Assembly: GCA_030167865.1 (NCBI GenBank) | Contig: JALAGF010006116.1 | Location: forward strand, 1-55,598 | DNA: 55,598 nucleotides | Source: Craspedostauros australis | Taxonomy: Eukaryota | Direction: 5' to 3' | Shown here: one piece after another, positions 658 to 48,110 of the stretch | Numbering within the stretch: position 1 is the first letter of the stretch | Layout: every line of letters starts with the position of its first letter | The notes under the pieces: generated by a model | What the model was told of the DNA's origin: nothing | Database searches by the model: none | What the model saw: only the letters and a program-made list of their open reading frames with translations | Program-made: the position numbers and the translations under genes

Positions 658-2361
658 ATGCCCGCCAAAAACGACCCACTCGGTTCTGACGAACTCAAAG
701 GTCTCACGACCCTCTTCGCCCGCCTCAACTGGCACTGGGCTGGTCTCTTCGTCACTGGCGCCAACATTCAGGACACCCTTGACCTTTGGGACTTCCTCGA
801 GTTGGACGATGAAGCATTCGACGGGTTTCTTGCCGCTTGGGCAAAGAACTCTCCCACTCGCGAGTTTGGTCTCCGCCAGCTCCGCGTGTACTATCGCGAT
901 AACCCCGATGTTGAGTCGTGGGCTTCGACGCTCGACCGCGACACCCTCCGCACGTACAAGCGCGACAGCAGGCCTTCTGCTACTCACGCGGCTGACAAGG
1001 GGCCTCCGCCTCCAGCTGCCGACGCGGCGCTCAAGCCACCGCCTACTGATGCAAATCCTTCTGCCATCGGTGGTACTGCCCCAACTGTGGCTGGCCACTA
1101 CGGCCCAGCCTTGGCCGGTGATGACACGCCTTCGCCGCGTGCGGGTCCACATGGTGCCACCGAGGACGCTCCGCTGGACATCTCAGGTGCTCCTCCCGTG
1201 GCTGCGCCGCCGGCGTCACACGACTTCGTCACCGGCTCCGGACTGCCCTACTCGGCGGCCAATGGCAATCCTGCCGCCACCGCGCACTTCACCTACAAGG
1301 CTGTCCTGTCTCCTCTGGAGCCCGATCGCGATGCCCTGGGTTATTGGCAACGCTGGACCAACCAGTTGTCTGTTGACGACCCCGCCAGTGTGCTCAAGTG
1401 GTACACCCAGCTTCAAGGGGAAGCGGATCGCATTGGCGTGGTACTCGTGCCTCTTTCGCACTTCAACCCGCGGTGCTCTCTCATCCCCAAGAATGCCCCT
1501 CGGGACATTGTCTTCAGGTCTGGAGTCCATCTCAGTCGCAAGCTCCAGGAGGATGGCGTCCTCGATCTGGACAACCCGTCTGTGAAGATGTACCACACAG
1601 CATGTTTTGGAGTCCTCCCACACCGGCTGTCTGGGTATCTCCTTCTCCATCAGGTGCTGCTGGACGCTTTTCAGCGCATCGAGCGCACCGTGAGCCAGGC
1701 CCCCGTGTACTCGGAGTACAAGGACATCGTGCTCTATGCTGATGCGCTTCTTGCATTTCAGCAAACAGAGACCGTGGTCCACAAGCGGCACTTCACTGAT
1801 GTGGAGCTGTCACGCCGATTCCTCGAGGATCTGCGGGCCAATGGCATGGATGTTGGGCATCTCGTCACCTCGTTGGAGCTTCAGCCCCACGCCAAGCGCG
1901 TTCCTCCACATCTGCACGTGTCAGCCCTGGCTCGGTCCATTCACCCTGATCCCACTACGGCCCATCGCCCGGTTGGACACCGTGTTCAGACCAGGTCGTC
2001 TGCTCGGCAAGGAGGTCAAGGAGGGCCCAGAGGTGAGCGCAAGCGGTCTGCTTTCTATCAACCGGACAAAGACGCTTTCTGTGCAGCCTGCCGTCGAGGT
2101 GGCCACAAAGCGGATTCGTGCCTCAACTGGGCCCGTCATCTTGCTTTCGCCGAGCTCCGCGAATCCAAGCCGGACCTGGCGTCTAAGGTACTGGAGAAAT
2201 TCAAGGACACGTACACGCAGGACAAGTCTCGCGCTTTTGCCCGTGCTCTCCAAGTCACCAGTGCCGATCTTGGCACCGAGGGTGCGATGGACGATGACGA
2301 TGTCGCCGAGCATGTTGCACAAATGCTGCTCCAGGATTTTGTGCTTGCTGGCCAGGAATAA
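658..2361 (+). CDS. gag: Retrotransposon Gag (567 aa)
   Basis: ATG ORF just after the PBS; CX2CX4HX4C knuckle CAACRRGGHKADSC at about 2080-2121. Confidence 0.9.
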   Translation: MPAKNDPLGSDELKGLTTLFARLNWHWAGLFVTGANIQDTLDLWDFLELDDEAFDGFLAAWAKNSPTREFGLRQLRVYYRDNPDVESWASTLDRDTLRTYKRDSRPSATHAADKGPPPPAADAALKPPPTDANPSAIGGTAPTVAGHYGPALAGDDTPSPRAGPHGATEDAPLDISGAPPVAAPPASHDFVTGSGLPYSAANGNPAATAHFTYKAVLSPLEPDRDALGYWQRWTNQLSVDDPASVLKWYTQLQGEADRIGVVLVPLSHFNPRCSLIPKNAPRDIVFRSGVHLSRKLQEDGVLDLDNPSVKMYHTACFGVLPHRLSGYLLLHQVLLDAFQRIERTVSQAPVYSEYKDIVLYADALLAFQQTETVVHKRHFTDVELSRRFLEDLRANGMDVGHLVTSLELQPHAKRVPPHLHVSALARSIHPDPTTAHRPVGHRVQTRSSARQGGQGGPRGERKRSAFYQPDKDAFCAACRRGGHKADSCLNWARHLAFAELRESKPDLASKVLEKFKDTYTQDKSRAFARALQVTSADLGTEGAMDDDDVAEHVAQMLLQDFVLAGQE

Positions 2362-2382
2362 CTTCGCTTCCTGGTGAACAGC
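2334..2382 (+). promoter_or_regulatory. -1 programmed ribosomal frameshift signal (G_GAU_UUU + stem-loop)
   Basis: Heptamer 2334-2340 is correctly phased in the gag frame. After a 6-nt spacer comes a hairpin: GCTG-GCCAGGAA (2347-2358) pairs with TTCCTGGT-gaa-CAGC (2368-2382). The pol frame is open from 2298 with no ATG before the protease. Confidence 0.8.
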
Positions 2383-5300
2383 TACGCGACGTCTCAAGTG
2401 AATGCGAGACACTGGTAGGCGCTCCACATGGAGAGGTGTCTTCGCTTGCTCACGCCTACCCACAAGGGCATCCATCCAAGCTGGTGCCCATCGTGGCTCA
2501 TGCTGCGTTGCAACTCTTTGCAGTACAGTCGCGATCATACGACGGCCGTGCATGGCGGACACAAGGCAGTGGTCAGTGCGATCCTGGGGCCAATGTCTGT
2601 GCCACGCCACACCAACAACTGCTGCAGAGATACCGCACGTTCTCAACACCGGTGCTTTTGGAGGCTGCCAATGCTTCTGCTCAAGCCATGGCGTGCCCAG
2701 GTGCTGGCGTCATGCAGTTGCATGGAGGCGGCGACCGTTGTGTGGATGTGCACATGTTGCACTGTCCCCAACTGGCTGACACGCTGGTTTCCCCGCAAGC
2801 CATTGTCCGGCAGTCCGACAACGACTTTCGCGGCTTCTGCGTTGAATCAGGTCCAGGTGGAGCTCGAGTCGTGTTCACATCGGACGCCGGTCCAGTGGTG
2901 GTACCCTTGGTGGTGAGGAATGGCCTGTACTACTTTGAAGGTCCATCATCACAAGTTTTCTCCGTTCGGAGAGCGTCCAAGGCCCTCATCTCGGAGCTGT
3001 GGCACCTTCGTCTGGGGCATGTTGGCATGAGCCAACTGAGTCGACTGGCGAAGTGCGCCACTGGCATACCAGCTGCTGCTGGTGAGGGAATCCATCCCCT
3101 GAGGCACTGTGACACGTGCAGTCGAGCAGGATACCAGCATGCTGTGCGTGGGCCCAACGATTCTACCACTGCCAATGTGCCAGGCGCGCGTTTCCATGTG
3201 GATTTTGGGTTCATGCGCGCGTCCAGTGCGGCGTATGGCAAAGGACGGCCCACCCGCAGCGCTCCTCGAGTGGTACAGTCCATTGATGGGTACTGCGCTT
3301 ATCTCCTCGTCGTGGATGCCTACACGGCATATGTCTGGGTATTCATGACCAAGGACAAATCACCACCAATCTCGGCTGTCAGGCATGTGCTCACTTCCTT
3401 TGGGCGCAAAGACGGATATCGTGCAGTTCGTGTTGACTTGGGAGGCGAACTTGCGCGGTCCGATCAGTTTCGAGAGATGGTCTTGGAGTGCGGGTACTCT
3501 GTGGAGCCCACCGGAGCCGATTGTGCTTGGATGAACAGCAAAGTCGAAAGACTCAACCGGACATTTGGCACAATGGTGCGAGCTCTGCTGTATTCGTCCG
3601 GCATGCACCCACAATTCTGGTCGAAGGCTCTCGCGCATGCGGTCTACCTCAAGAACAGGTTGTATCACTCAAGCATCGGCATGACGCCATATCAGCGCCA
3701 GCATGGGGTGGTACCGGACCTCTCACACTTGCGAGTCTTCGGGTCTCGTGTCACGGTGAAGAAGCCTGGGAAGGCTGCTGCCAAGCTTGACGTCCATACA
3801 TACGATGGCGTTTTTGTTGGACATACCGCCACGCCGTCGCTGCACGAGTACTACAACTTGCAAACAGGTCGGTTCAAGAGAGCTGGGAATATTGTCTTCG
3901 ATGAGGCGCATTTCATGTCCTCTGACAGGCCGCCTGGCCCACAACTTCTCTTCAATCTGGGCTTCGAACAACCGAGTGCTGATGCACCTCGTGATCAAGT
4001 CGTAGATGCTGCTACGTATCCGCCTGCCAGGGTCAAGTACACGAAGGCGCCTACCCTTGCGTGCAGAATACCACTGCCCCTTGGGGATTTGGTCGACAGG
4101 GCAGCACAACATGCATCCGCTGCTAGTTGCCAGACTACGAACGCGGCACATGCGGTGGACATTGAGATGGCCGACGATCCGTTTGGATTCAGCTTCGACC
4201 AACAGATTGCGATCGCTGGCACGGATGCCACCCTTGGGTTGGAGTTCACTTACGATGCCCAGCGTGACCGTCTCGTGCTGGTGATGTGCCGGTCTGGCCA
4301 GCCCTCAGCTCGCATTCCAAGGTGGCGATCAAGACTTCGACACTCGCACCTGCTTGCAATCAACGCGACTTCCATCCACACGCTCGACCAGCTGAAGGCG
4401 TGCATCGATCACCTTCGTGCCAACAAGGCTACAAGTGCCACATTTGTGTTCGCTTTCGACGATGTGCGCAACGCGATGTCGCAGACTGGTGTACCCCAGA
4501 TGTACTTCGATCAACTCCGGCATGTACGGGACATCATCGAGTCCGCGCATCCCAAGGCACACGCCACCAGCGTCACAAATGCTCCAACGAAGTTGACTCG
4601 ACGCATGCTGCGGCAACAGGATGACTGGCCAGAGTGGAGCGCAGCCGAGGACAAACAGCTCGATCAGTACGATGCACAGCAGATGTTTGGTGAACCAGTG
4701 TTACCGCCTGCTCAGGCTGCTGTGTTCAACTGGGTGTGGGTGTACGTCGTCAAAGCGCACAAGAATAACCGGAAGAAAGCTCGAGCGGTTTGCGATGGGT
4801 CAACGCGTGGAGGACACGCTCGCATTTTTGGGCACACCTACGCAGCTACACCGGATTTGACAGAGTTCCGCATTCTTCTGGCAATTGCGGCGATACAAGG
4901 GCTACGAGTGTACGGATCCGACGTGACCAATGCCTTTGCTGAGGCTCCTGCTGGGGAACAACGGTACTACATGAGAGTCGATGACCAGTATCGCTCTTGG
5001 TGGGAGAAGCGGCGAGGCAAGGTTATGCCAAGAGGAGCTGTCATTCCTGTCCACAAAAATCTTCAGGGACATCCGGAAGCGCCCAGACAGTGGAGCAACC
5101 ACGTAAATGGCCTCTTGCGGCAGATGGGGTTCCATGGTACCACGCATGCTCCATGCCTGTATGTGGGAAGCGTCGATGCGTCCAAAGTCTACGTGCTCCG
5201 ACAGGTGGATGATTTTGCAGTCGCGACCTCCACAGAGGATGTCTTCAACAAGTTCTGTGACTCGCTCGATGCGCATCTATTTCAACCCATGACGCGGCAA

Positions 5301-6326
5301 GGACTGATGGTGCACTACAATGGGTTGGACATCGACCAAACCCAAGACTTTGTCAAGGTACATTGCACGTCCTACGTTGACAAGATGCTGGAGAGGTATC
5401 AGTGGCAGAACTTCAAGACCACTCAGCGACTGCCCATGAGATCCGACAATTCATACGTTAAGAGTTTGGACAAGGCTGTCCTGCCAGGTGACGATGACGA
5501 GCGCCGACGAGTGGCGAGCCAGTTCAAGTTTGGTTATCGGCAGGCCATTGGCGAGTTGATTTGGGCCATGATATCGTGTCGACCGGACATCTCGTTCCCA
5601 GTCGTCAAGCTCTCGCAGTTCTCCACCAACCCTGCTGCTCTACACTTCGAAGGGGTGAAATACCTCATGCGGTATGTTGCTGGCACGCGTGACCATGGCG
5701 TGACATATTGGCGCGTCCGACCGCTCGTGGGTCTGCCCCAAGCGCCACATCCTGTCCGGCTGTCACCTACAGACGATGCCGTTCATGATGTCTCTGGCAT
5801 CCAGCAGCTCAATGCTTCCACTCTGTATGGGTACACTGATGCGGATTGGGGTGTTGATATTCGACATCGACGATCGGTGACAGGCATCATCTACATGCTT
5901 GGAGGCGCTGCCGTTGCATGGAAGACGCGGGTGCAACCCACTGTTTCCCTCAGCAGCACTGAGGCCGAATTCGTTGCTGCCAGCGATGCTGGCCGCATGG
6001 CCTTGTGGCTTCGATCCATCCTCGATGAAGTTGGAGTGAAGCAACAGTATGCGACTATGATCTTCGAGGACAATCGCGGTGCTCGGCTGATGGCCAGCGC
6101 CAGTCAGCCTACCCGGAATTCGCGCCACATAGCGATCCGAGAGTTCGCGGTCCTCGATTGGGTGGAGAGAGATCTCCTGACATACCCAGAAGTCGCATCA
6201 GACTTGAATGCATCCGACATTTGCACGAAACAGACACCTGTGGCTCTGTATTTTCGGCACATCGACCTAGTTATGGGTCGACTTGTGCCCTTTTACGTAC
6301 GCAACCGCCACAGCCCGGATATGTAG
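2334..6326 (+). CDS. pol: Retrotransposon Pol (protease, integrase, PDZ-like insert, RT, RNase H), translated as a Gag-Pol fusion of about 1890 aa
   Basis: CDPGAN protease-like motif; LWHLRLGH...CDTC zinc finger; integrase core (HVDFGF, VDLGGE, VERLNRT); RT motif RQVDD; RNase H YTDADW and LSSTEAEFVA; no in-frame stops. Confidence 0.95.
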   Translation, partial: GFCACWPGITSLPGEQLRDVSSECETLVGAPHGEVSSLAHAYPQGHPSKLVPIVAHAALQLFAVQSRSYDGRAWRTQGSGQCDPGANVCATPHQQLLQRYRTFSTPVLLEAANASAQAMACPGAGVMQLHGGGDRCVDVHMLHCPQLADTLVSPQAIVRQSDNDFRGFCVESGPGGARVVFTSDAGPVVVPLVVRNGLYYFEGPSSQVFSVRRASKALISELWHLRLGHVGMSQLSRLAKCATGIPAAAGEGIHPLRHCDTCSRAGYQHAVRGPNDSTTANVPGARFHVDFGFMRASSAAYGKGRPTRSAPRVVQSIDGYCAYLLVVDAYTAYVWVFMTKDKSPPISAVRHVLTSFGRKDGYRAVRVDLGGELARSDQFREMVLECGYSVEPTGADCAWMNSKVERLNRTFGTMVRALLYSSGMHPQFWSKALAHAVYLKNRLYHSSIGMTPYQRQHGVVPDLSHLRVFGSRVTVKKPGKAAAKLDVHTYDGVFVGHTATPSLHEYYNLQTGRFKRAGNIVFDEAHFMSSDRPPGPQLLFNLGFEQPSADAPRDQVVDAATYPPARVKYTKAPTLACRIPLPLGDLVDRAAQHASAASCQTTNAAHAVDIEMADDPFGFSFDQQIAIAGTDATLGLEFTYDAQRDRLVLVMCRSGQPSARIPRWRSRLRHSHLLAINATSIHTLDQLKACIDHLRANKATSATFVFAFDDVRNAMSQTGVPQMYFDQLRHVRDIIESAHPKAHATSVTNAPTKLTRRMLRQQDDWPEWSAAEDKQLDQYDAQQMFGEPVLPPAQAAVFNWVWVYVVKAHKNNRKKARAVCDGSTRGGHARIFGHTYAATPDLTEFRILLAIAAIQGLRVYGSDVTNAFAEAPAGEQRYYMRVDDQYRSWWEKRRGKVMPRGAVIPVHKNLQGHPEAPRQWSNHVNGLLRQMGFHGTTHAPCLYVGSVDASKVYVLRQVDDFAVATSTEDVFNKFCDSLDAHLFQPMTRQGLMVHYNGLDIDQTQDFVKVHCTSYVDKMLERYQWQNFKTTQRLPMRSDNSYVKSLDKAVLPGDDDERRRVASQFKFGYRQAIGELIWAMISCRPDISFPVVKLSQFSTNPAALHFEGVKYLMRYVAGTRDHGVTYWRVRPLVGLPQAPHPVRLSPTDDAVHDVSGIQQLNASTLYGYTDADWGVDIRHRRSVTGIIYMLGGAAVAWKTRVQPTVSLSSTEAEFVAASDAGRMALWLRSILDEVGVKQQYATMIFEDNRGARLMASASQPTRNSRHIAIREFAVLDWVERDLLTYPEVASDLNASDICTKQTPVALYFRHIDLVMGRLVPFYVRNRHSPDM

Positions 6327-21607: not shown

Positions 21608-22696
21608 GTCGCGGTCGCCTCCCGTTTCGTCCTCTTCCGATAGCCTCCAGTCGCTTGCTTCTTCTGTTCCGGTTCAATAGCAACCGCTGCAGTCCTCAGA
21701 TCGTTTGTGTGAACTGCGTATAATCGCTTCGATTGCGCTCTGTGCTTGTTGCGTGACAATTGTGGTCTAGCTGCCGTTGTGAGGAAGTGTGGAGGCAGTG
21801 GCGATGGCGAAGTGTGGAGCGCGTTGCGCGCAGTGCAGAGGTGAACGTGACCGCGAATGTGAAGAGATTGGCGCCAAATGCGAATGCCGTTGACGATCCT
21901 GAGTTCTATCTAGCATGCACGTGTTGCTGATGTTACAGGTGCCACCGATGTCCGCGATGCAGAAGGTGCGCCTCGTTCATGTGTTGGTGTTGATTGTGTT
22001 GTGAAGTGAAGTGATGCTGATGTTGGTGGTGGGGCTCCGTGTGTGATGCCAGTTGTGCTGGGACGCTCCCTCCAACAACAAGGATTTGTTGACGGTGGAG
22101 GGAGCTTTTTGGGTTTTGGCGCGCTGGATGGAAGATTCGCCATCATCTCACAACGAAAGCGATGTTTGTTGGCGAATGAGCGTTAAGTTAACGTTACTTA
22201 CGTCTATATAGTATTCATGTCTTATTGATGTATAATTTCGCTGTCTTTGATTCAATCGACCAAAGTGCGAGAATTGCCTCGTATTCGTGACTAACACTTT
22301 CATTCGAGTCCGGACATACGTAGGATTGCCAAGTTCTTCTTCAACACATCAGCCTTCACGACCTCACCACCGTCATCCATCCGTCAACGCACACAAAGAT
22401 GTGATGACAAGACACAAGAGAGAGAGGAATGACCAAGAACACACCCATCACAACCACACCCACCACGTGCCCATCAACAGAATCATTCCACCGATCGCTA
22501 TTTCATCTCAGAAACATCAGCTCACATCGCATCGGGCTGCATGACATCACGTTGACCCATCACAACATTTGCTTCCACCACGCACACATAATCAATCGCA
22601 ACGTAACGCATCGACCCATCACCTCATCGAAGCCAGTCCACAGCTTCGTCCTTGATTTCGTCGTCCCTACGCGTACTCCAGAGAGAAGACACCACC

Positions 22697-24466
22697 ATGA
22701 TGTTCAAGGTCAATTCGATGGTCGTGCTGTCGCTGTTGGCGGGAGCGGCCACATCCCCTTGCGCAGCCTTTGCGCCCATCAGCTCGCAGAGCGCCCGCAG
22801 CGCTGGCACGCAAAAGCTCAGCAGCAGCACCGTCGCCGATCCCTCCTTCACATCGGAGGGTGCGCAGAAGCAGGTCGGCAACGACTCCTTCCTCAACCAG
22901 GACCTCATGGCGCGTGCGCAGAACGGACCTGGCAAGAAGAATGAGGAGTCGCTCAGCATCGGGATCGTCGGTGCTGGATTGGCGGGAATGGTCGCCGCCA
23001 TGGACCTGGCCGATGCCGGTCACAAGGTCGAGATGTTCGAGCTGCGGCCCTTCGTGGGTGGCAAGGTCAGCTCCTGGCTGGACAAGGAGGGCAACCACAT
23101 CGAGCAGGGCCTGCACGTCTTCTTCGGATGCTACTACAACCTCTTCGGCATCATGAAGCGCACGCAGGGCGACGAGCTCTTCAACCAGAACCTGCGCGTC
23201 AAGGAGCACATCCACACCTTCGTCAACGAGGGCGGCAAGCTGGGTGCCCTGGACTTTCAGTTCCCCATCGGCGCGCCCGTCAGCGGTTTGCAGGCATTCG
23301 CGCGCACGGAGCAGCTCGGCGTCGAAGACAAGTTCCACAACGCCGTGCGCCTGGGAACGTCCCCCATCGTGCGCGCCCTCGTCGACTTCGACGGCGGCAT
23401 GGACATGGTGCGCGACCTCGACGACATTACTTTCACGCAGTGGTTCACCCAGCTGGGCGGATCGCGCGGCAGCCTCGATCGCATGTGGGATGCCATCGCC
23501 TACGCCCTCGGCTTCCTCGACTGCGACACCATCAGCGCGCGTTGCATGCTCACCATCTTCATGCTCTTCGCCATCCGCACGGAGGCCAGCGTGCTGCGCA
23601 TGCTCGACGGATCGCCGCAGACCGGACTGCACGATCCCATCATCAGCTACCTCGAGGAGCGCAACGTCAAGATCAACCTCAGCACGGGCTGCCGTGACAT
23701 CGTGCACGAGGTCGATCCGGACACGGGCCTTCCAACCCGCGTCAAGGGTATCGAGGTCGGTCCCAAGAACGAATTCAAGGAGTACGACGTCGTCATCGCC
23801 GCCCTCGACGTGCCAGGAATCAAGAAGGTGCTGCCCGATAGCTTCCGCAAGTTCGACTTCTTCGACAAGATCTACAACCTCGACACCGTCCCCATCGCCA
23901 CGGTCCAGGTACGATTCGACGGATGGGTGACCGAGCTGAACGACGACGCCCGCATGATGGACATCTCCGGTGATCAGAGCGACGGCAAGGGCGCCGGCAT
24001 CGACAACCTCCTTTACAGCGTCGACACCGAATTCTCGTGCTTCGCCGACCTCGCCCTCACCAGCCCCGGCGACTACTACAAGGAGGGAGAGGGATCCCTC
24101 ATCCAGGCCGTCTTCGACGAGCGCGCCACGAGCCGGTCCAACGAGCAGCTCGTCGCGGACTGCATCGAGCAGCTCAACAAGGTCTTCCCCTCGTCGCGCA
24201 AATTGAACTGCACCTGGTCCTCCGTCGTCAAGCTCAACCAGAGCCTGTACCGCGAGAAGGTGGGACAGGACAAGTTCCGACCCAAGCAGGCCACCCCCAT
24301 CCCCAACTTCTTCCTCGCCGGCTCCTACACCTACCAGGACTACTTGGATTCCATGGAGGGCGCCACGCGATCCGGTCTCATGGTCGCCGATGAGGTCATC
24401 GCACGTGCCGATGGTCCAACGGGGTTGAAGAAGATGGCCGAACAGCAGCAGCCCGTCGTCGCATAG
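22697..24466 (+). CDS. ZDS: Zeta-carotene desaturase, plastid-targeted (589 aa)
   Basis: Signal peptide ending CAA|FAP (ASAFAP type), GAGLAGM dinucleotide-binding motif, GGKVSSW..GNHIEQGLHVFFGCYYNLF, CDTISARCMLTIF, YLDSMEGAT; strong GC3 bias. Confidence 0.93.
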   Translation: MMFKVNSMVVLSLLAGAATSPCAAFAPISSQSARSAGTQKLSSSTVADPSFTSEGAQKQVGNDSFLNQDLMARAQNGPGKKNEESLSIGIVGAGLAGMVAAMDLADAGHKVEMFELRPFVGGKVSSWLDKEGNHIEQGLHVFFGCYYNLFGIMKRTQGDELFNQNLRVKEHIHTFVNEGGKLGALDFQFPIGAPVSGLQAFARTEQLGVEDKFHNAVRLGTSPIVRALVDFDGGMDMVRDLDDITFTQWFTQLGGSRGSLDRMWDAIAYALGFLDCDTISARCMLTIFMLFAIRTEASVLRMLDGSPQTGLHDPIISYLEERNVKINLSTGCRDIVHEVDPDTGLPTRVKGIEVGPKNEFKEYDVVIAALDVPGIKKVLPDSFRKFDFFDKIYNLDTVPIATVQVRFDGWVTELNDDARMMDISGDQSDGKGAGIDNLLYSVDTEFSCFADLALTSPGDYYKEGEGSLIQAVFDERATSRSNEQLVADCIEQLNKVFPSSRKLNCTWSSVVKLNQSLYREKVGQDKFRPKQATPIPNFFLAGSYTYQDYLDSMEGATRSGLMVADEVIARADGPTGLKKMAEQQQPVVA

Positions 24467-25086
24467 ACGTGACGTCCTCATACGTACCGAGAGTACTCCC
24501 CAGTACACCGCATCGGTGCGTACTATGCTCCACACGGTGTATGGTAATAAGTCATAGGGTCCTTTGTTGATTCGCACCATGAGTACTTTAATACATCGCA
24601 TGTGCTGAGTCGCACGTCAGGGCACCAGGACGTTGTTCGTGAGAAACAGTTGCGAGTTGGAGACGGATGACGTGCGGAGAACTCGTAGAGTGGAGGAGAA
24701 ATGAAACGATGAATTATATTATTACATGAACATGATTAGTTGCTGCAACCAACATTCATGCAACAGGAGGAGCAGCATTAGCATCACCAAGGTCGCACTC
24801 TGCATAGATTGTATGGTACGACTATGACCATTGTCGTCGCCCTCTTCCTTCCACGGTTTGTCTTAGACTCTTGCTTCCCTGTTGTAGTCGTCACCTCCAT
24901 CGTTTTACGGGCGGGAGAACAAATACGACATCACAGAACAACTGTTCCTTCTTTCTCACTTCGCAGTGATCCTTGCTCACTGGCGTGGTAATAGCCAAAG
25001 AAGATGAACAGTTCGTGAAGGCCAAGCCCAAGCCAAGCACAACATCAAGCACAACATCAAGCACCATACATATTATAGATGCAGCA

Positions 25087-40385: not shown

Positions 40386-41834
40386 ATGAACACAAAAACG
40401 GCCACAAAGATGAACGGTGTTACCGTCGCCGCCAACGGCAAACCCAAGCACATGCCAAAGCCACCATCGCTATTGGCACGATACTCCTGCGCCACCGTCA
40501 TGGTCGGCGTCATGGGTCTCTGGACCAAATACGCCTTCCTCCCCGAAGACGAGACGCCATCGATAGCCATGCCGATGCATTCCTACAAAATCCCGCTGGC
40601 ATTCTCTCTCTCCTACTGCATCGCGTTGCCCGTCCTGCGATACCTCGCGCAGAACTACTTCCTCCATTGGACGGACATGAAACTGCTCCTGCGGGAGACC
40701 ATGATTCTCTACAATCTCGCCCAGGTCCTGCTCAACGCATACACCGTCTACCTCATCATCGTGGCCGTCACGCAGAACAACCATCCCTTCGTGGGAGAGA
40801 CGAACCTCGTCACGTCCGGCGCCACCTACGCCGTCTGGCTTCATTACGCCGACAAGTACCTCGAGTTCATGGACACGGCCTTCATGGAGCTCAAGGGAAG
40901 AGTCCAGCAGGTAAGAACCATCATTCCAACTGCAATTTGCGGCTGCAACCGCAAGAATTGTCATTCCATCGCATTTCACGGAACTCCGCATTGCATTGCG
41001 TGTTGCGCATTGTCGACATCTCTTGTTTCGCCTGTGTGCCCAATCACTCAGGATTTGGCGCCAAATTGCGCCTGGTCACGTTCCTCCCGGCAAAAGGATG
41101 GCGGCCTCATCAGAGAGAGGTACAGGAGCAATGCACGATGAGCACCGACGTGTGATGTGATGATGTATTTGCATGCGCTCTCTCAAGCAGTTTGGATGTT
41201 CCACTCACCTCCCTTCGCATAATCATTCATTCATTGTTTCATCCATCCATCTATCCAATGCTCCGCAATCCCGTTTTGTTATTTCGCAACGCACGCCGTC
41301 AATTTCATTCCATTCCATCGGAACACGTGCGCACAGGTCTCATTTCTGCACGTATACCATCACGTCTCCATACCGTGGGCCTGGTGGATCGCCCTCACCT
41401 TCTGGCCGGGTGGTGACTGCTACTTCGGAGCGCTGCTCAATTCCCTCATCCACGTCATCATGTACACGCATTACTTCGTCACCGCGGCGTTCCAGGTCGA
41501 TGCGCCATGGAAGTCATACATTACGAAAGCGCAGATGCTGCAGTTCGTTCTCGTCATCGCTTACTCCGTCCTCTCCCTGGGCACCCTGTATAGCCGCAAC
41601 GAGCTCGAATTCGTGCACGTGCAGTGCCTCTTCACGCAGGTCTTCGAGATGACATCCCTCCTCGGCCTCTTCTACGCCTTCCACCAAAAGTCCTACAAAA
41701 AGAAAAAGACGGTCAGAGCCAAAGCGGTCAGCGCGCCAAGGAAAGAGGCGGCCCTACGCAGCAACAGCCTGGAGACGGTCTCGGACGATTCCGACAGCAG
41801 CAGCGGCGGTGGCACGGACAAGAAGGATCAATAA
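40386..41834 (+). CDS. ELO/GNS1/SUR4 fatty acid elongase, resembling diatom delta-5 (C20) PUFA elongases (340 aa, 2 exons)
   Basis: Exons 40386-40910 and 41337-41834. Motifs KYLEFMDT, VSFLHVYHH, GALLNSLIHVIMYTHY, ITKAQMLQF; C-terminal di-lysine DKKDQ. Confidence 0.92.
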
Positions 41835-42802: not shown

Positions 42803-45800
42803 CTATATCGCACCGAGGATTACCATCTCAGGATGGAAGCGCACGCTCTTCCCCGATGCATTCGATTGGCTGCGTTTGTCATGTTTCGCGAAAGAGCTCG
42901 CCTTTTTCAGTGTCTTGATTGGTGGCGGTCTGGGCCTTCCTTTCATCCGTGCCACCGGCTTGTCAGCACCATTGGCTTCGCCTTGCTCCTGCCCATCCTT
43001 CAGCACCGGTGGAGGCGCTGTTGGCTGCACCAGGAAGGAAAGCCATCCCGTGATCATGATCCAGTGGAACATGTTGAGGTTCATGGATGCATCGATGCCG
43101 GCATGCATGACAAACGCCAGCAGCAAGCCCATTGCTCTCGTGCGCTTCATCCACAGCATCGTGGGGACCACGAGTTGGATGGCGATGGTGAAGTAGGTCA
43201 GGAATGCGAGTGGCCGATGGTACTGATACAGCCAGTCGGGATTGAAGTACCCGCCGTACATATCATCCAGCTGGACCACGACTTGCATGGCGGTCCCGTT
43301 TCGCCAAGCTGGACCAGACAGCTTGCAGACAGTGGATGATATGAAGATGAGACACATCTCCAATTGAACTAGGCGGAATGGCCACTGTGATTGCGATGTT
43401 ACAAAAAAGAAGAGGTCAAGTTGTGGATTGGATTGGGTGGATGCAAGCGAAGCATCATGAAACAAAGCAGGTGCATGCGTATGCGTGTGGGTGTTAGCAA
43501 AGACCTCTCAGTTGCAAAAAATACATTTGAGTTGAATGGATGTCATGGACACCATGAGGAATCACAACAGAACAGGACTTACCATCGGCCATGTCTTGTC
43601 TTGCTCCTCCTCCAACTCTTCTTCCAGTCCCATGCTTCCGAAGCTACCGAGACTGCCCATGCTGATACTCTCCATGCTGCTCTTCTTCTTGTAGTTCATC
43701 TTTTTGCTGTGGCTGGTGTTAGTCTTTGGGCTCTTCGCGCCGTTGCGGATCTCGGCCTCCTTCTCTTCGAGCCAATCAAACACGCTCCCCGTGTTGTTTG
43801 GGAAGAAGATCATCAAGAAGGAAATGATACGGAAGACCGTATCTTCGCCATTCCACAGGATGTCGGTGTAGTTCTGCACGTTGATGTGCCAGAAGAAGAT
43901 GGAGATTGCCTGGAATCGCGGCGCGATGCCCATTGCCAGCAACACGGTCTGGAGCAGGAAGATGTTGATGCTGATGCCGAACAAGATCGCGGCAATGTCG
44001 TCGTTGGAGATGTAGGAGAAGATGGTGAACGCATGCAGTGGAGTGGTCTGCACTCCCTTCGATATCGGCATGGCCGCCAGGTAGAAATTGAGGCTCAGCG
44101 AAAGGATGAAGATGTTGATGAAGACCGTCACGGCGAAGCACGTGCGCACGATGACTGCCGAACGTAGATCATCCGTGCGGCTATGGAAGAAGTTGTTCCA
44201 CCGTTCTGCAACTTGATGGAACGGACCCTTAGCATCATTTCCGGCAGATTTGGACTGCACTGTCGATATCTCGGTGATTGGCATTGCCTCCCTTGCTTTG
44301 TTGTCGCCGGATGTCTCTGTCTGCGTGTTTGGTGCCGTGACTGCGTCGGCGTTCGCATCTGCGACTGCTGCTGTAGCCGATTCCTGCGCCGTGGGATCGG
44401 CCGCTGATGGCGCTGATCTGGGCTTGGTCTGCACCGCGTCGTCTTGCTTGACGGTAACTTTTGTCGTCTCCTTATCGTACAGCAGAGTAGCCTCGTCGTC
44501 TGGCTGGATCAAGAAGCTTGACCATGCCAGTAGCATCATGTAATGGAAGGCGTTGAGGTTCATGGAGGTGTCGATACCGAGATGAAACATCGCCAAGATC
44601 GCAAGCGTGGGCTTGCGCGTGGCCTTGAACCATACCGTGAACGGTGCGACCACTTCCAACACCAGCGTCATGTAGGTCAGCGCCGTCAATGATCGGTCGT
44701 ACCCGAACAGAAAGTCCGGGTTGAAGACCCCGCCGAACACATCGTCGAGCTGGACGATGAGGTGCATTGCAGAGCCGTCCACCCATCGCTGTCCTGCGAG
44801 CTTGTGGATGGCGGAGCACAGGAACATCAGCGAGACGTGCATCTGCATCAGGCGGAATGGCCACTGCGTTGTTGCGAGTGTGAGCAGTGCAGTCCAGTGC
44901 AGTTTGCAGATCATTGCATATGTGGCCGTTTTTATGAAGATATCAATACAGCGAGGATCGCAGCACCGGCGCGAAATGAGAGGTGGGAGGGTTCGTACAG
45001 ACGAGCAGAGGGATGTTGTGTGAGATGGAAATTCCAAGAACGAATGATGCACCCGACGAAGACGTGGAGACAACCAAATGCCCAATTGAAACCGCAAACA
45101 GGCCAAAGTCCCAAGACGCGCAGCCAACAAGGCATCAAGACACCCTGGCGTGGCCTCGCTGTACCTCACAGCAGCAGCAGCAGCAACAAACACAACGACA
45201 ACAAACAACATTTGCGGCACCGTGCAGTGACAGACTTACCATTGGCCAACTCCGCGAGACAGCTGACAACGATGACGATCGCGATGCATCCTTCGAACTG
45301 CGCTTTGAGCTGCGACTCTTGCGTCCTGGCCGTTGTGATTCCTGACTTTGATTCTTGCTGAACACGTCGAACATGTTGACGGTTGTGGGGAAGAAGATGA
45401 CGAAGAAGGAAATCATCCTCGACATCGTGTCTTCTCCAAACCAGATGACGTCGTTCCAACACGCCAGGCTGTACAGCCACGCGAAGGTGGAGACGGCGTT
45501 GAAGCGAGGGAAGACGCCCAAGCCCGACAGGGAGAGCTGCGACATCATGATCCAGAGCATGAACCTCCTGTATGGGATGACATTGTCGGACTCATCCGAA
45601 ATCATTGCAAACAGAGTCCATGTGTTGGGATAGCGCTCGCGACTCACGTGTGTCGGCAGAACCTTTGTGTAGAAGTCAAAGTCAAGAATCACCGTCAGTA
45701 GACCGGCCAAGGCCACGATGGAGTGCAGGAAGCGGAGAACCGCTGCACCCCGCAGGTTGGTGGTCCTGGCATGAAAGAATACCTCCCATTGCGACTTGTT

Positions 45801-46724
45801 CGCGTATGCCTTGTGTGCGATGATGGCGGCGTCCATACGCCCTGTCCGGCTGCGGCTCCTGTGCCGTCTGCTTCTGCTGCTGCTTCGCTTACCGTGGCGC
45901 CTCCCCTTCCTGCGGCTGCCCTTTGTCATGCTGTCGTCCTCGCTGCTGCTGATGCTTCCCGTCCCTCCGCTGCCTTCGCTGTCTGTCGTCTTGCCTGTGG
46001 AGGAATCTAATGGGACGACGTCTGAGCTGCTGGCGCTGTCCACGAGTAGAACTTTTCCGAGAATTCCCTGGAGAGAGTTGACTCGAGGCGCTTCCCGAGA
46101 AGCCAGTGATACTTTTCCTGGGGAGGAACGGGAGGAATCGTTTTGTCCTTGTGGCTTTCCTTCATCACCTCGTTTGGCGCGAAGATCTTTCGCCATCGTC
46201 GGTGGAGATGAACTGTATGTGGATACAGCGTCTTTCGAACCGAGCGTCGAGACTCTGTCTGAGTCGAGGGATCCGACGCTTCGGTGACCACCTCGACGTC
46301 GACGACCAGGGCTTCTGTGCTTGCCAAATACTCGGCGAAAGGCTGCCAGAGGACGCGATTTTTGTTTAGTCTCATTTGATCGAAGTAATCCATCATCCTT
46401 GCCAGCCTCTTCTTTTCCGTCCAGTGCATTTCGCTCCACCGAGGGCTCTCGTACTCCTTTTCGAACTCTTGACCTGTTTCGTCGTCTCTGTAGAGGAGCT
46501 GCCCTGTGACTCGAATCCGACGGCTTACCGGGTTCGGAGAGAATAGAGACCACTGACCCTGCCACAGACCCACCCGATCGAGGATTTCGTACACGTTTTG
46601 TTGGATGGGATCCAGCGCCTTCAGCGGTCCTACCATAGGACACGTGTCGATCAGAAACAATGCTATGATCGCCATCAGGAAGAGATCCGTTGCGAGACGC
46701 TGCATCTTTGCGGAGCTTGGCCAT
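42803..46724 (-). CDS. Tandem double-HTTM membrane protein (SdpB/LinG/vitamin-K-dependent carboxylase-like; 1115 aa, 3 exons)
   Basis: Exons 46724-45240, 44863-43583 and 43384-42803, all phase 0, GTAAGT..CAG. Two repeats of LR.A.(V/I).R...G..PRF...IW/LW.GEDT..R.ISF..IFFP...WPMWPFRL.Q...KL.G..W..G.AM...QLDD..GG.FNPD...H.GID.SMNLN.FH. Confidence 0.88.
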
Positions 46725-46732
46725 GATTTCAT
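46007..46732 (-). CDS. SdpA/DUF5819/LinL-like HTTM partner protein (241 aa), overlapping the HTTM gene in another frame
   Basis: First ATG after an AUG-free CA-rich leader. N-terminal hydrophobic anchor (LFLMAIIALFLID), GLWQGQWSLFSPNP motif, SPRWSEMHW..KKRLARMMDYFD...LWQPFAEYLA; globular amino-acid composition. Confidence 0.8.
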   Translation of the reverse strand: MKSWPSSAKMQRLATDLFLMAIIALFLIDTCPMVGPLKALDPIQQNVYEILDRVGLWQGQWSLFSPNPVSRRIRVTGQLLYRDDETGQEFEKEYESPRWSEMHWTEKKRLARMMDYFDQMRLNKNRVLWQPFAEYLASTEALVVDVEVVTEASDPSTQTESRRSVRKTLYPHTVHLHRRWRKIFAPNEVMKESHKDKTIPPVPPQEKYHWLLGKRLESTLSREFSEKFYSWTAPAAQTSSH

Positions 46733-46849
46733 TTTTTGTTCTCTGGTTGTGGCTGTGGTTGTGATTGCGGCTGTGGTTGCGGCTGTGTTCCTTTTCTTTT
46801 TATGACTGAGTTCTGTCTACCGTTTGAATTTGTTCGTTGTGTTGTGTGT

Positions 46850-46894
46850 GTTGTATGGTGTGCGTTGTATGGTGTGCGTTGTATGGTGTGCGTT
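46850..46894. repeat. 14-bp tandem repeat (GTTGTATGGTGTGC)x3 upstream of the dual-coding locus
   Basis: Three perfect copies plus GTT, read directly. Confidence 0.9.
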
Positions 46895-48110
46895 TGCGTG
46901 AAGTGTCAGCGACGCGAATGTTGAAATGCCCTGGATTCTCGCAGGAGAGACGGCGATGATTGTGTGCTATCCTTACCTGTCGTCGTTGCGGGTGTAGTAT
47001 GATTGGGAATTACCGTGGAGGCTGTTGCAGAAGTATGTACGACCACGAGTATTGGCGTTGTCGAGAGTGCCGCAATGGCTGAGCTGCTGCTGCGAGGTCA
47101 GATTTTGTGTTTCGAGAGAGTTCCCCAGCGATACTTTGGGTTGCGAAACAAGGTGTTCGGTTGTTGTGATGCTGCGTGATGTTCTGTTCGATGTTGCATG
47201 CAGTGTGCGCCTGTCTCGATCTCGTCTTCTTGGTCCCCCTTGATCGTTGTTCACTGATTTATGGCGTTGGACTGAATTCGTTGCTGCTCTTTGTACCCGT
47301 GTCGCTGTTTCCGTCGTCGCCAAAGAAGTTAACACGTTCCGGCTCTCCTCTTCCTTGCGCGTTCTTTCCCGAGTCGAGCGTCCGTTGCCAAAAATGAAGG
47401 CACGCGCTTCTTTCTTCTTCGCTCTGGTGCCACAACGACCTTTTGTACCGGACTATGTCATCTCCTCTGACTAAGTTATCGCTGACGTGAGCGCTATTAT
47501 GACATTTTCTATGTTTCCACCGACTTCTTCACGAGTACATAGTGCAGAAACGGTTCTCCTGTACACGGACTGCTATAAGTACTAACGACGAACCAGGTGG
47601 ATGAGAAGGCATAAACTTGCCAAAATGACAGCCAATCATATCCTTCGCGGATGACTCCTGCGTGGCATGATTTAATGAAAGCAGCTGGCTCACTCGCTTG
47701 TTGGCCATACATACAGCTCCGTTTGTCCGTCGAAGACATATTTTGGTCCGTGGATCACATTCCCACGAATCCGCCTGTCTGTTCGTCCATCCGTACAGAT
47801 GCATTCCCGGTCACCCATGAGAAAAACATGAAACGCCACGAACACGAGCCAACCGCTAACAAGTCACAAGGACGGTCGTATTCAATCTCGCTAATCCTGG
47901 TCAGGCGACTGGATCGCAACCCACCGAATTGTGTCACAACATCGCCCTTGCTGAGCAGCGCGCCACTCTCTCTCTGGACATCCATGGGATTTCACGCGAG
48001 CAGATGTTTCTCAACGTGGATGCTTTGGACCTGAGACTGCGAAACGATGAACACGGGGGCAGGCGTGCCAGTCGCCATCTCATGACCGAGAGCACAATGG
48101 ATCCAAGAAG

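Follow-up and report, generated by a model that had tools for sequence, protein, structure and literature searches.

The minus strand of a 55,598-nt stretch of Craspedostauros australis DNA (GenBank assembly GCA_030167865.1, contig JALAGF010006116.1, positions 1 to 55,598; hereafter the window) carries two overlapping open reading frames (ORFs), in which the gene of a small membrane-anchored, DUF5819-like protein (hereafter the partner) lies entirely within the ORF of a protein bearing a tandem double HTTM domain. The two ORFs begin at start codons (AUG1 and AUG2) placed next to each other, and we put at roughly 70% the probability that both are functional coding frames expressed from these paired AUGs, which would make this a true dual-coding locus. 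The evidence that carries this reading is the recurrence of the whole arrangement in a distant relative; the same two genes are also neighbours in bacteria. The features concerned are as follows.

46733 to 47198, minus strand: A/C-rich leader without ATG, reaching to AUG1 (from an ATG scan and base composition)
46730 to 46732, minus strand: AUG1, start of the partner (DUF5819-like) ORF, with A at -3 and A at +4
46722 to 46724, minus strand: AUG2, start of the +2-frame ORF that reaches the double HTTM, with A at -3 and G at +4
46007 to 46732, minus strand: partner ORF, 241 aa plus stop, with an N-terminal membrane helix, a conserved G-WQG-W-LF-P-P motif and a beta-rich domain
46007 to 46724, minus strand: putative dual-coding overlap of 718 nt, frame 0 being the partner and frame +2 a disordered basic stretch that extends the HTTM protein at its N-terminus
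45240 to 46724, minus strand: HTTM exon 1, 495 codons, with the overlap, an S/R/G-rich linker and, from about codon 313, the N-terminal half of HTTM domain 1
44864 to 45239, minus strand: intron 1, 376 nt, GTAAGT..CAG, phase 0, directly 3' of W-P-M, the protein resuming with W-P-F-R-L
43583 to 44863, minus strand: HTTM exon 2, 427 codons, with the C-terminal half of HTTM domain 1, the inter-domain linker and the N-terminal half of HTTM domain 2
43385 to 43582, minus strand: intron 2, 198 nt, GTAAGT..CAG, phase 0, at the identical W-P-M / W-P-F point of the second repeat
42803 to 43384, minus strand: HTTM exon 3, 193 codons plus stop, with the C-terminal half of HTTM domain 2 and the tail

Paired start codons, and the overlap in relatives

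The minus strand reads ...AACAAAAA ATG AAATC ATG GCC, its two start codons lying 8 nt apart (the corresponding spacing is 7 nt in turnip yellow mosaic virus, TYMV). The nearest ATG 5' of AUG1 is found at 47199, which leaves a leader devoid of ATG for 467 nt, and the last 400 nt of this leader comprise 144 A, 134 C, 65 G and 57 T. A preliminary description of this DNA had placed AUG1 at 46732 and AUG2 at 46724 behind an AUG-free leader, and all three can be read directly from the minus strand. The RNA around both AUGs is, if anything, less structured than its shuffles (z +1.76; folding was equally good or better in 192 of 200 shuffles). The TYMV type of configuration (out-of-frame AUGs less than about 10 nt apart, a long ORF from each and no AUG 5' of them) is thus present, the distance being 8 nt in both the window and the relative treated below, with the leader checked in the window.

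In the ORF listing the second frame spans 45135..46724 (529 aa) and stands in the +2 frame relative to 46007..46732. Across the 718-nt overlap it holds no stop (the third frame holds 12), and it then runs, as had been claimed, into the double HTTM: the spliced coding sequence, which crosses two GT-AG introns, measures 3348 nt and specifies 1115 aa, uninterrupted by any stop. The intron junctions were confirmed by the proteins of relatives, which read WPMWPFRLMQ without interruption. On the minus strand of 45790-46732 we counted 13 ATGs, of which 9 belong to frame 0, 4 to frame +2 and none to frame +1, and the partner ORF of the relative shows the same pattern (10 in frame 0, 5 in frame +2, none in the third frame). 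The lack of third-frame ATGs across the overlap in both species may reflect the avoidance of unproductive starts, or composition alone.

The cluster of the closest partner homologue contains an MMETSP member of 293 aa (P0151), which is Transcript_17771/g.50348. A search with the C-terminal half of the HTTM protein returned a 646-aa double HTTM protein (P0163) that is 58% identical, and a cluster-mate of the latter (P0167; 989 aa, double HTTM) is Transcript_17771/g.50347, i.e. it derives from the same assembled transcript as P0151. P0001 and P0163 are probably carried together by one 3211-nt contig, as judged from equal size figures. The transcript's two proteins begin with MANKRKNAKNRN... (P0167) and MKGWPTSARMQR... 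(P0151), the latter corresponding to MKSWPSSAKMQR at the N-terminus of the window partner. By reconstructing the DNA of the relative through constraint propagation from these two protein sequences, we found them to be exactly co-encodable at an offset of 8 nt over all 293 codons, with 13 of 879 nt ambiguous and a partner stop of the form T-N-G. Since unrelated proteins could not be co-encodable, the relative shares the double AUG, the frame and the absence of any stop over 291 codons; its overlap covers 871 nt (718 nt in the window), in the identical +2 frame and with the identical start position. Hence, frame 2 is uninterrupted in the one relative that was tested in full, and the conserved overlap and double AUG that the preliminary description proposed to look for do recur.

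The two species are far apart. Their partners are 47% identical, and nucleotide identity at codon positions 1, 2 and 3 is 0.58, 0.69 and 0.41, the last value meaning that the two DNAs are near to independent draws. An alternative frame conserved over at least 500 nt is, according to a passage in one study, improbable by chance (PMC1868773); here such a frame is open at the same place in two orthologues in full, and over about 35 codons in Epithemia. Of all frame-2 methionines, Met1 is the only one that the window and the relative share in position.

The Epithemia evidence comes from an annotated HTTM protein of Epithemia clementina (P0165), with 472 aa, a single HTTM domain and a disordered N-terminus of 165 aa. 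In our co-encoding test the amino acids possible in the shifted frame were computed for each adjacent residue pair (positive control, z 35.9). The first ~35 residues of P0165 proved compatible with the C-terminal block of the partner at the same offset, with HWLLGDKVQSTL fitting at 12 of 12 positions; the score against P0152 was 56 (shuffled, 21.8 +/- 3.6; z 9.6), the comparison with P0002 reached z 6.4, and the other frame offset gave nothing in this test. As the start of P0165 is co-encodable with the end of the partner, Epithemia shares the synteny and the frame offset too, along with an overlap that is at least short.

The extension that AUG2 would add to the HTTM protein is S/R/G-rich over the overlap, as previously claimed; in the window it has 78% disorder-promoting and 16% hydrophobic residues, a net charge of +34 and no membrane segment. 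That of the relative is similar (76-78% disorder-promoting residues across both), and in the predicted fold of its 989-aa protein residues 16-315 have a predicted local distance difference test (pLDDT) score of 24-36 and no secondary structure, which, given no alignment depth in that region, lends weak support to disorder.

How open the second frame is, and what else could explain it

Synonymous-codon shuffles of the 241-aa ORF lead to an expectation of 9.3 stops in the +2 frame, and none of 20000 was stop-free; when frame +2 was held fixed instead, at most one stop in frame 0 was obtained in 92 of 20000 shuffles. At the junctions between codons, a codon ending in T precedes codons that start with AA, AG or GA in 0 of 61 cases, versus 36 of 179 elsewhere (Fisher p = 9.4e-6). 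In the relative the corresponding figures are 0 of 71 versus 22 of 208 (p=0.0012), with 6.2 expected +2-frame stops and P(0)=4e-4 from shuffles.

A number of observations weigh against dual coding, and they are gathered here together with the explanations that they favour. The first group concerns the openness itself. Eight long ORFs of the window also under-use the junctions in question (0.032 +2-frame stops per codon, observed/expected about 0.57-0.69), and at this background rate P(0 in 239 codons) = 4e-4; with an amino-acid- and context-specific background 5.0 stops are expected and P = 0.004, the most conservative value for the window alone. The same 55 kb, moreover, holds several other nested alternative-frame open runs of at least 220 codons. 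Because the result depends on the null and other nested open runs exist, openness in the window alone, given the number of genes that a genome scan meets, is suggestive and not decisive. These points would all fit an open +2 frame that arose from codon usage and junction bias, with an incidental second ATG, as a P of 0.004 is not small given the genes scanned. Such an origin by chance or composition leaves unaccounted for the fact that complete openness, frame and +8 ATG are all found again in a relative with silent sites close to saturation (joint probability, at the window background rate for both species, about 4e-4 x 7e-5), and that the open frame is exactly that of the functionally linked downstream gene; we regard it as very improbable indeed. 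The earlier claim that some 240 stop-free codons are unlikely without selection is strengthened by the same frame being open in the relative, the window alone bringing P, on the most conservative estimate, down to 0.004 only. Bearing on the suggested check for suppressed synonymous changes that would create stops are the 0 of 61 T junctions, and a bias that ordinary ORFs of the window share in weaker form.

The nested runs elsewhere in the window, which served as a statistical caution, are 248-346 codons long and mostly in the +1 frame (538-2358/545-1582 and 40355-41152/40380-41138 on the plus strand, 10183-13959/12351-13094 on the minus strand).

The second group of observations concerns where the HTTM protein can start. 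Two frame-2 methionines of the window, Met266 (45929) and Met297 (45836), lie between the partner stop and the HTTM motif at 313, and a shorter mRNA could use them. The locus might accordingly comprise two expression units, with HTTM made from a shorter mRNA, begun within the partner gene or shortly past it, through a downstream frame-2 AUG (candidates being the window's Met266 and Met297 and the relative's Met219 and Met242) and with an upstream +2 frame that is open without yielding a functional protein. Several further points incline the same way. AUG1 has an A at -3, which the vertebrate rule counts as favourable and which might therefore keep leakage past it low; the 'single transcript' of the relative was assembled de novo, a procedure that could join overlapping mRNAs, and the relative's DNA was inferred from proteins; and the Epithemia annotation places the HTTM start only ~35 codons inside the partner. 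The frame-2 peptide itself is barely conserved, with 26.3% identity at 236 codons against a null of 22.3 +/- 2.1 that stems from the frame-0 constraint (z 1.9), and the non-overlapping linker is 23% identical between species (the HTTM domains are 50-52% identical). Dual translation from one mRNA is itself inferred from sequence. The partner stop lies upstream of both exon junctions, ~770 nt from the first, and in organisms with junction-dependent surveillance such an mRNA would be marked for decay.

The frame-2 methionines of the relative (1, 96, 102, 219, 242 and 344) tell differently on this explanation. There the partner stop follows frame-2 residue 290, the conserved HTTM N-terminal motif begins at 319 and Met344 sits inside the first membrane helix; with no Met between partner stop and HTTM domain, a complete HTTM must start at an AUG inside the partner ORF, and even from Met242 at least 49 codons of real overlap would be needed. 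In the window, 11 ATGs occur between AUG2 and the first non-overlapping frame-2 ATG at 45929, which makes long-range leaky scanning to that downstream start implausible. Two separate units would also leave unexplained both the stop-free 239 and 291 codons in species with 41% third-position identity and the sole positionally conserved frame-2 ATG at +8. We consider them unlikely. In the dual-coding reading, the poor conservation of the peptide has a different bearing, as selection seems to be directed at the open frame and at its start codon, and not at the peptide sequence.

A third explanation would join both modules in a single fused chain, by a -1 frameshift, an unrecognised intron or an assembly indel. 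It may appeal to the +2 frame being the -1 frame of the partner and to the existence of fused two-module proteins among relatives in both orders: partner-HTTM in P0033, and HTTM-partner in P0076, P0130, P0131 and P0166. Against it, partner homologues end a few residues past their C-terminal FYxW block, as the window's does; the relative keeps its own in-frame stop and both frames, such that an indel artefact would have to recur independently; and a frameshift at the 3' end requires neither a +2 frame that is open from codon 1 nor a conserved AUG2. We found no frame-restoring donor/acceptor pair near the partner 3' end (by eye, not by a splice-site search). A fused chain is accordingly highly improbable, and the preliminary description's own reservation, that splicing or an indel might merge the frames, is countered by a partner that is conserved to the FYxW block and has its own stop in both species.

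An intron fusing the frames was considered and rejected, given that frame 0 is conserved to the last block, that the relative keeps both frames, and that the sole GT..AG pair seen by eye near the stop spans 25 nt and does not restore the frame. As to the fused proteins themselves, the Pseudo-nitzschia MMETSP sequences P0166/P0168, together with P0076 and P0130, unite the two modules in one chain, with the HTTM first and the partner module behind it. The fused form being present in diatom-type organisms, split-overlapping and fused solutions coexist in the group.

The two proteins and their bacterial counterparts

For the partner, a search of 1.84 billion representatives retrieved 182 homologues at E<=1e-3 and 39 at <=1e-10, most of them free-standing proteins of 160-220 aa; this, together with an AlphaFold2 model of pLDDT 89.1, disposes of the doubt raised earlier that the 241-aa ORF might lack homologues. 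The model shows a membrane helix at residues 7-30, a second helix and a beta-rich domain (pLDDT ~90), and bears out the previously predicted globular protein with a membrane anchor. Residues 55-68 contain GLWQGQWSLFSPNP, and the eight near-invariant positions of the family (P32, G55, Q58, W61, F64, P66, W94 and R112, each present in at least 90% of 138 aligned sequences) are all found in the window protein. The eukaryote-like closer relatives align over the full length, up to a C-terminal HWLLGxKxxSTL...FYxW block, and since the partner is conserved up to the FYxW block, frame 0 is coding to its end.

The affiliation of the partner with DUF5819 stands in part. The layout of the family (an N-terminal membrane helix, then a Q-W-(L/M)F-P-P motif, then a globular domain) is found in the window protein, and DUF5819 matches 21 of the 138 partner relatives at E<=1e-3 (best 3.7e-7), no other Pfam family being matched. 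The window partner itself scores 15.7 bits over residues 60-89 only (PF19136; cut-off 27.1, E=0.024) and thus stays below threshold. We would therefore place it as a sister group to DUF5819, outside the Pfam family as defined. Hence, of the DUF5819/SdpA relation claimed in the preliminary description, the link through relatives holds and the direct assignment of the window protein does not. The names SdpA/SdpB and linaridin LinL/LinG are carried over from that description and not derived in this analysis.

Comparisons of structure gave little. Foldseek returned no PDB fold match for the partner at E<=1e-3, the best match by VIA-align over 48161 chains had Z 5.1 over 56 residues, and the partner profile met nothing under E=1.6 among the sequences of solved structures, GGCX included. 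A passage in a preprint likens the DUF5819 module to the luminal 'clamp' of GGCX (bioRxiv 10.64898/2026.08.19.745780), a likeness which our comparisons neither confirm nor exclude. In a partner tree (quick method) the window protein pairs with P0001 (98) within seven eukaryote-like rows (support 89); the remaining rows lack taxon labels, and nothing firm can be said from them on a bacterial donor.

Several partner relatives, P0001 and P0016 among them, end in KTEL/ETEL, and the single-chain fusions in which HTTM precedes the partner (P0076, P0130, P0131, P0166) end in GDEL, VDEL, NGEL or GEEL, i.e. in tails resembling endoplasmic reticulum (ER) retention signals. The window partner is ~50 residues shorter at its C-terminus and ends in ...QTSSH (46007-46040), without such a signal. 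The K/xTEL ends of partner relatives and the DEL/EEL ends of fusions suggest that the C-terminal domain is ER-luminal.

As for the HTTM protein, the exon-2 ORF reaches the Pfam HTTM threshold (PF05090; 30.5 bits, E=3.5e-7, cut-off 27.7) and the exon-3 ORF alone remains under it (22.4 bits, E=1e-4); each domain being split by an intron, each ORF holds half a HTTM domain. A profile of 15 HTTM sequences matches 8 distinct solved GGCX sequences (best E=1.5e-16), and the conserved Lys of the HTTM 'KL' motif aligns with residue 218 of the 758-residue gamma-carboxylase chain, K218 being its catalytic base. The HTTM protein is thus predicted to be a tandem double enzyme of the vitamin-K-dependent-carboxylase-like type; no candidate substrate emerged from the window. 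No homologue was found for the whole 529-aa frame-2 ORF among the 8000 candidates that ranked best by shared words (a set in which low-complexity words probably predominated), nor for its residues 296-496 among 1214 candidates, both searches covering proteins of 290-926 aa only; the 989-aa P0167 came via cluster membership.

The two halves of the HTTM protein (42803-45800, minus strand) bear a phase-0 intron at the identical W-P-M / W-P-F point of each repeat. A double HTTM also occurs in P0163/P0167, and a single one in Epithemia P0165 and in P0164. By virtue of the tandem HTTM duplication, one partner gene would serve two HTTM domains.

The preliminary description had stated that bacterial partner genes lie beside HTTM genes, and a metagenome scan agreed with it. 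The scan yielded 37 partner loci, all distant and bacterial-type (24-37% identity), the contig of the close relative not being among them, and in 21 of the 37 an HTTM ORF lies directly downstream of the partner on the same strand (17 distinct layouts; 4 pairs are near-duplicates). Nine of the other loci have <320 nt downstream, and seven with downstream room (L008, L018, L021, L023, L025, L026 and L037) gave no HTTM match in scans that took in 36 of 64 candidate neighbour ORFs in a second round, the rest having been partly scanned earlier and others (shorter alternative frames; upstream ones, e.g. at L021, L028 and L029) left out. Taking the start codon nearest to the partner stop as the bacterial HTTM start (a heuristic), we found an overlap of 4 nt with the partner stop in 12 of the 21 pairs, one of 1 nt in 2 others, and direct contact without overlap in a further 2; in 15 of the 21 the HTTM gene stands in the partner's +2 frame, which is the offset of the window.

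In the 12 pairs with the 4-nt overlap (loci L004-L034) the HTTM start overlaps the partner TGA as NTGA, a classic sign of translational coupling. At one locus (L031, GC 0.67) the HTTM frame is open across the whole partner gene, probably through high GC. Passages of the same preprint describe the bacterial DUF5819 and HTTM pair as modelled into a split complex that resembles the single-chain animal carboxylase, and the two modules as fused in MloH (bioRxiv 10.64898/2026.08.19.745780).

Expression, origin and known parallels

We reason that a single transcription unit would give rise to both proteins, in a manner that the arrangement of start codons and frames suggests. From AUG1 it would yield a membrane-anchored DUF5819-like accessory protein of 241 aa, whose bacterial counterpart is thought to complete the HTTM enzyme; from AUG2, a basic disordered extension of ~310 residues followed by the tandem double HTTM, 1115 aa in all after two introns are spliced out. 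Both AUGs would be used on one capped mRNA (by leaky scanning or AUG competition), with scanning 40S subunits partitioning between start codons 8 nt apart and producing both proteins in a fixed ratio, and the partner would associate physically with the HTTM protein. Selection would keep AUG2 and the stop-free frame +2, the sequence of the extension being otherwise nearly free to drift. By general membrane-protein rules the basic extension would be cytosolic, and the C-terminal domain of the partner ER-luminal.

With regard to origin, gene order and frame offset point to descent from an operon of the bacterial type. The starting state would have been a translationally coupled pair, with the partner stop overlapping the HTTM start and the HTTM in the +2 frame; once expression depended on the scanning ribosome, the HTTM frame would have grown in the 5' direction as far as the region of the first AUG. 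We lean slightly towards the full scenario, in which diatoms inherited a coupled bacterial-type pair and extended the frame of the enzyme back through the accessory gene, thereby obtaining both subunits from each mRNA at a ratio set by start competition, as well as a new basic disordered cytosolic tail, and kept this solution across diatom genera.

The closest parallels each share some of these traits. The bacterial DUF5819 and HTTM pairs have the same modules, gene order and strand, together with the N-terminal membrane helix and the WQG-W-LF-P-P motif, but their overlap is at most 4 nt in 16 of 21 (718 nt here), the window partner falls under the Pfam DUF5819 threshold, and the diatom protein has two HTTM domains in tandem behind a long disordered extension at its N-terminus. 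Single-chain GGCX resembles the HTTM protein in the profile match (E=1.5e-16) and the aligned motif Lys, and the diatom-type fusions (P0076, P0130, P0166) have HTTM and then the partner module in one chain, with DEL/EEL ends; unlike in GGCX, the modules here are separate polypeptides from two frames, and the partner is without sequence or fold match to it. In human MOCS2, two enzyme subunits (MOCS2A and MOCS2B) that are homologues of adjacent operon genes are encoded by overlapping ORFs on one mRNA, although that overlap amounts to tens of nt and the second ORF opens close to where the first one ends, and not 8 nt behind the first start codon.

To our knowledge, dual coding that is both long and conserved has very few examples in cellular eukaryotes, and the textbook cases are mammalian. 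As passages of the literature have it, dual-coding mRNAs with interacting products are known in mammals from XLαs/ALEX (PMC1186735; PMC1868773). The GNAS locus that encodes them is similar to ours in having one well-folded frame and a fast-evolving alternative one, and differs in that ALEX is a lineage-specific overprinted protein, whereas both modules here are old, separately conserved and neighbouring genes in bacteria; only the N-terminal extension of the second protein is overprinted, the first gene is contained in full within the second ORF, and the organism is a diatom-like protist. Parts of another study report that in yeast and human cells AUGs set close together compete for initiation, that eukaryotic genes are otherwise purged of proximal downstream ATGs lying out of frame, and that AUG competition also applies to the overlapping ORFs of TYMV, for which Matsuda and Dreher are cited (PMC9743702). 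TYMV and the p26/p27 ORFs from pea enation mosaic virus 2 (PMC6294492) share with the window out-of-frame AUGs a few nt apart and long overlapping ORFs, but they belong to compact RNA virus genomes and not to a nuclear, intron-containing cellular gene.

Dual-coding mRNAs in mammals and close-AUG dicistronic initiation in viruses are thus already known. What would be new is the combination of ancient, separately conserved bacterial-type partners with a first gene wholly nested in the second ORF, in diatom-type algae, and kept between distant relatives. No diatom case was seen among the 15 matches listed by a literature search on dual coding and diatoms; 'HTTM domain' was absent among the best 10 of 4,692 matches, a ranking dominated by 'diatom' and 'Phaeodactylum', so that the absence of such papers is not shown by it.

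If the dual-coding reading is true, the locus would be a natural example of an operon-type pair surviving expression by scanning ribosomes, a cellular counterpart to the viral 'close AUG' trick and a test bed for subunit ratios set by start-codon competition. Attention is further drawn to an ER-type carboxylase-like enzyme system, so far uncharacterised, in diatoms (K/xTEL and DEL/EEL tails). For annotation it would be a warning, with the diatom pair usually mis-called, either through a truncated HTTM or a missed partner. The earlier expectation that gene finders would call only one of the two proved too general: TransDecoder called both ORFs, and what remains of it is that the metagenome caller called both but truncated the HTTM, and that in the Epithemia annotation the HTTM begins within the overlap.

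Elsewhere in the window, 22607-24616 holds an amine-oxidase gene (Pfam Amino_oxidase, E=1e-56) with a GC content of 0.87 at third codon positions; three forward frames are open there for at least 250 codons in part, and a 649-codon antisense frame is open as well, probably a composition effect. An ORF of 1342 codons (2298-6323, plus strand) has gag-pre-integrase, SH3-like and RVT_2 domains, which mark it as the polyprotein of a copia-type retrotransposon. A gene for a fatty-acid elongase of the ELO family (40386-41834, plus strand) lies in convergent orientation to the HTTM gene's 3' end, and probably contains introns, as the reading frame changes between the listed ORFs.

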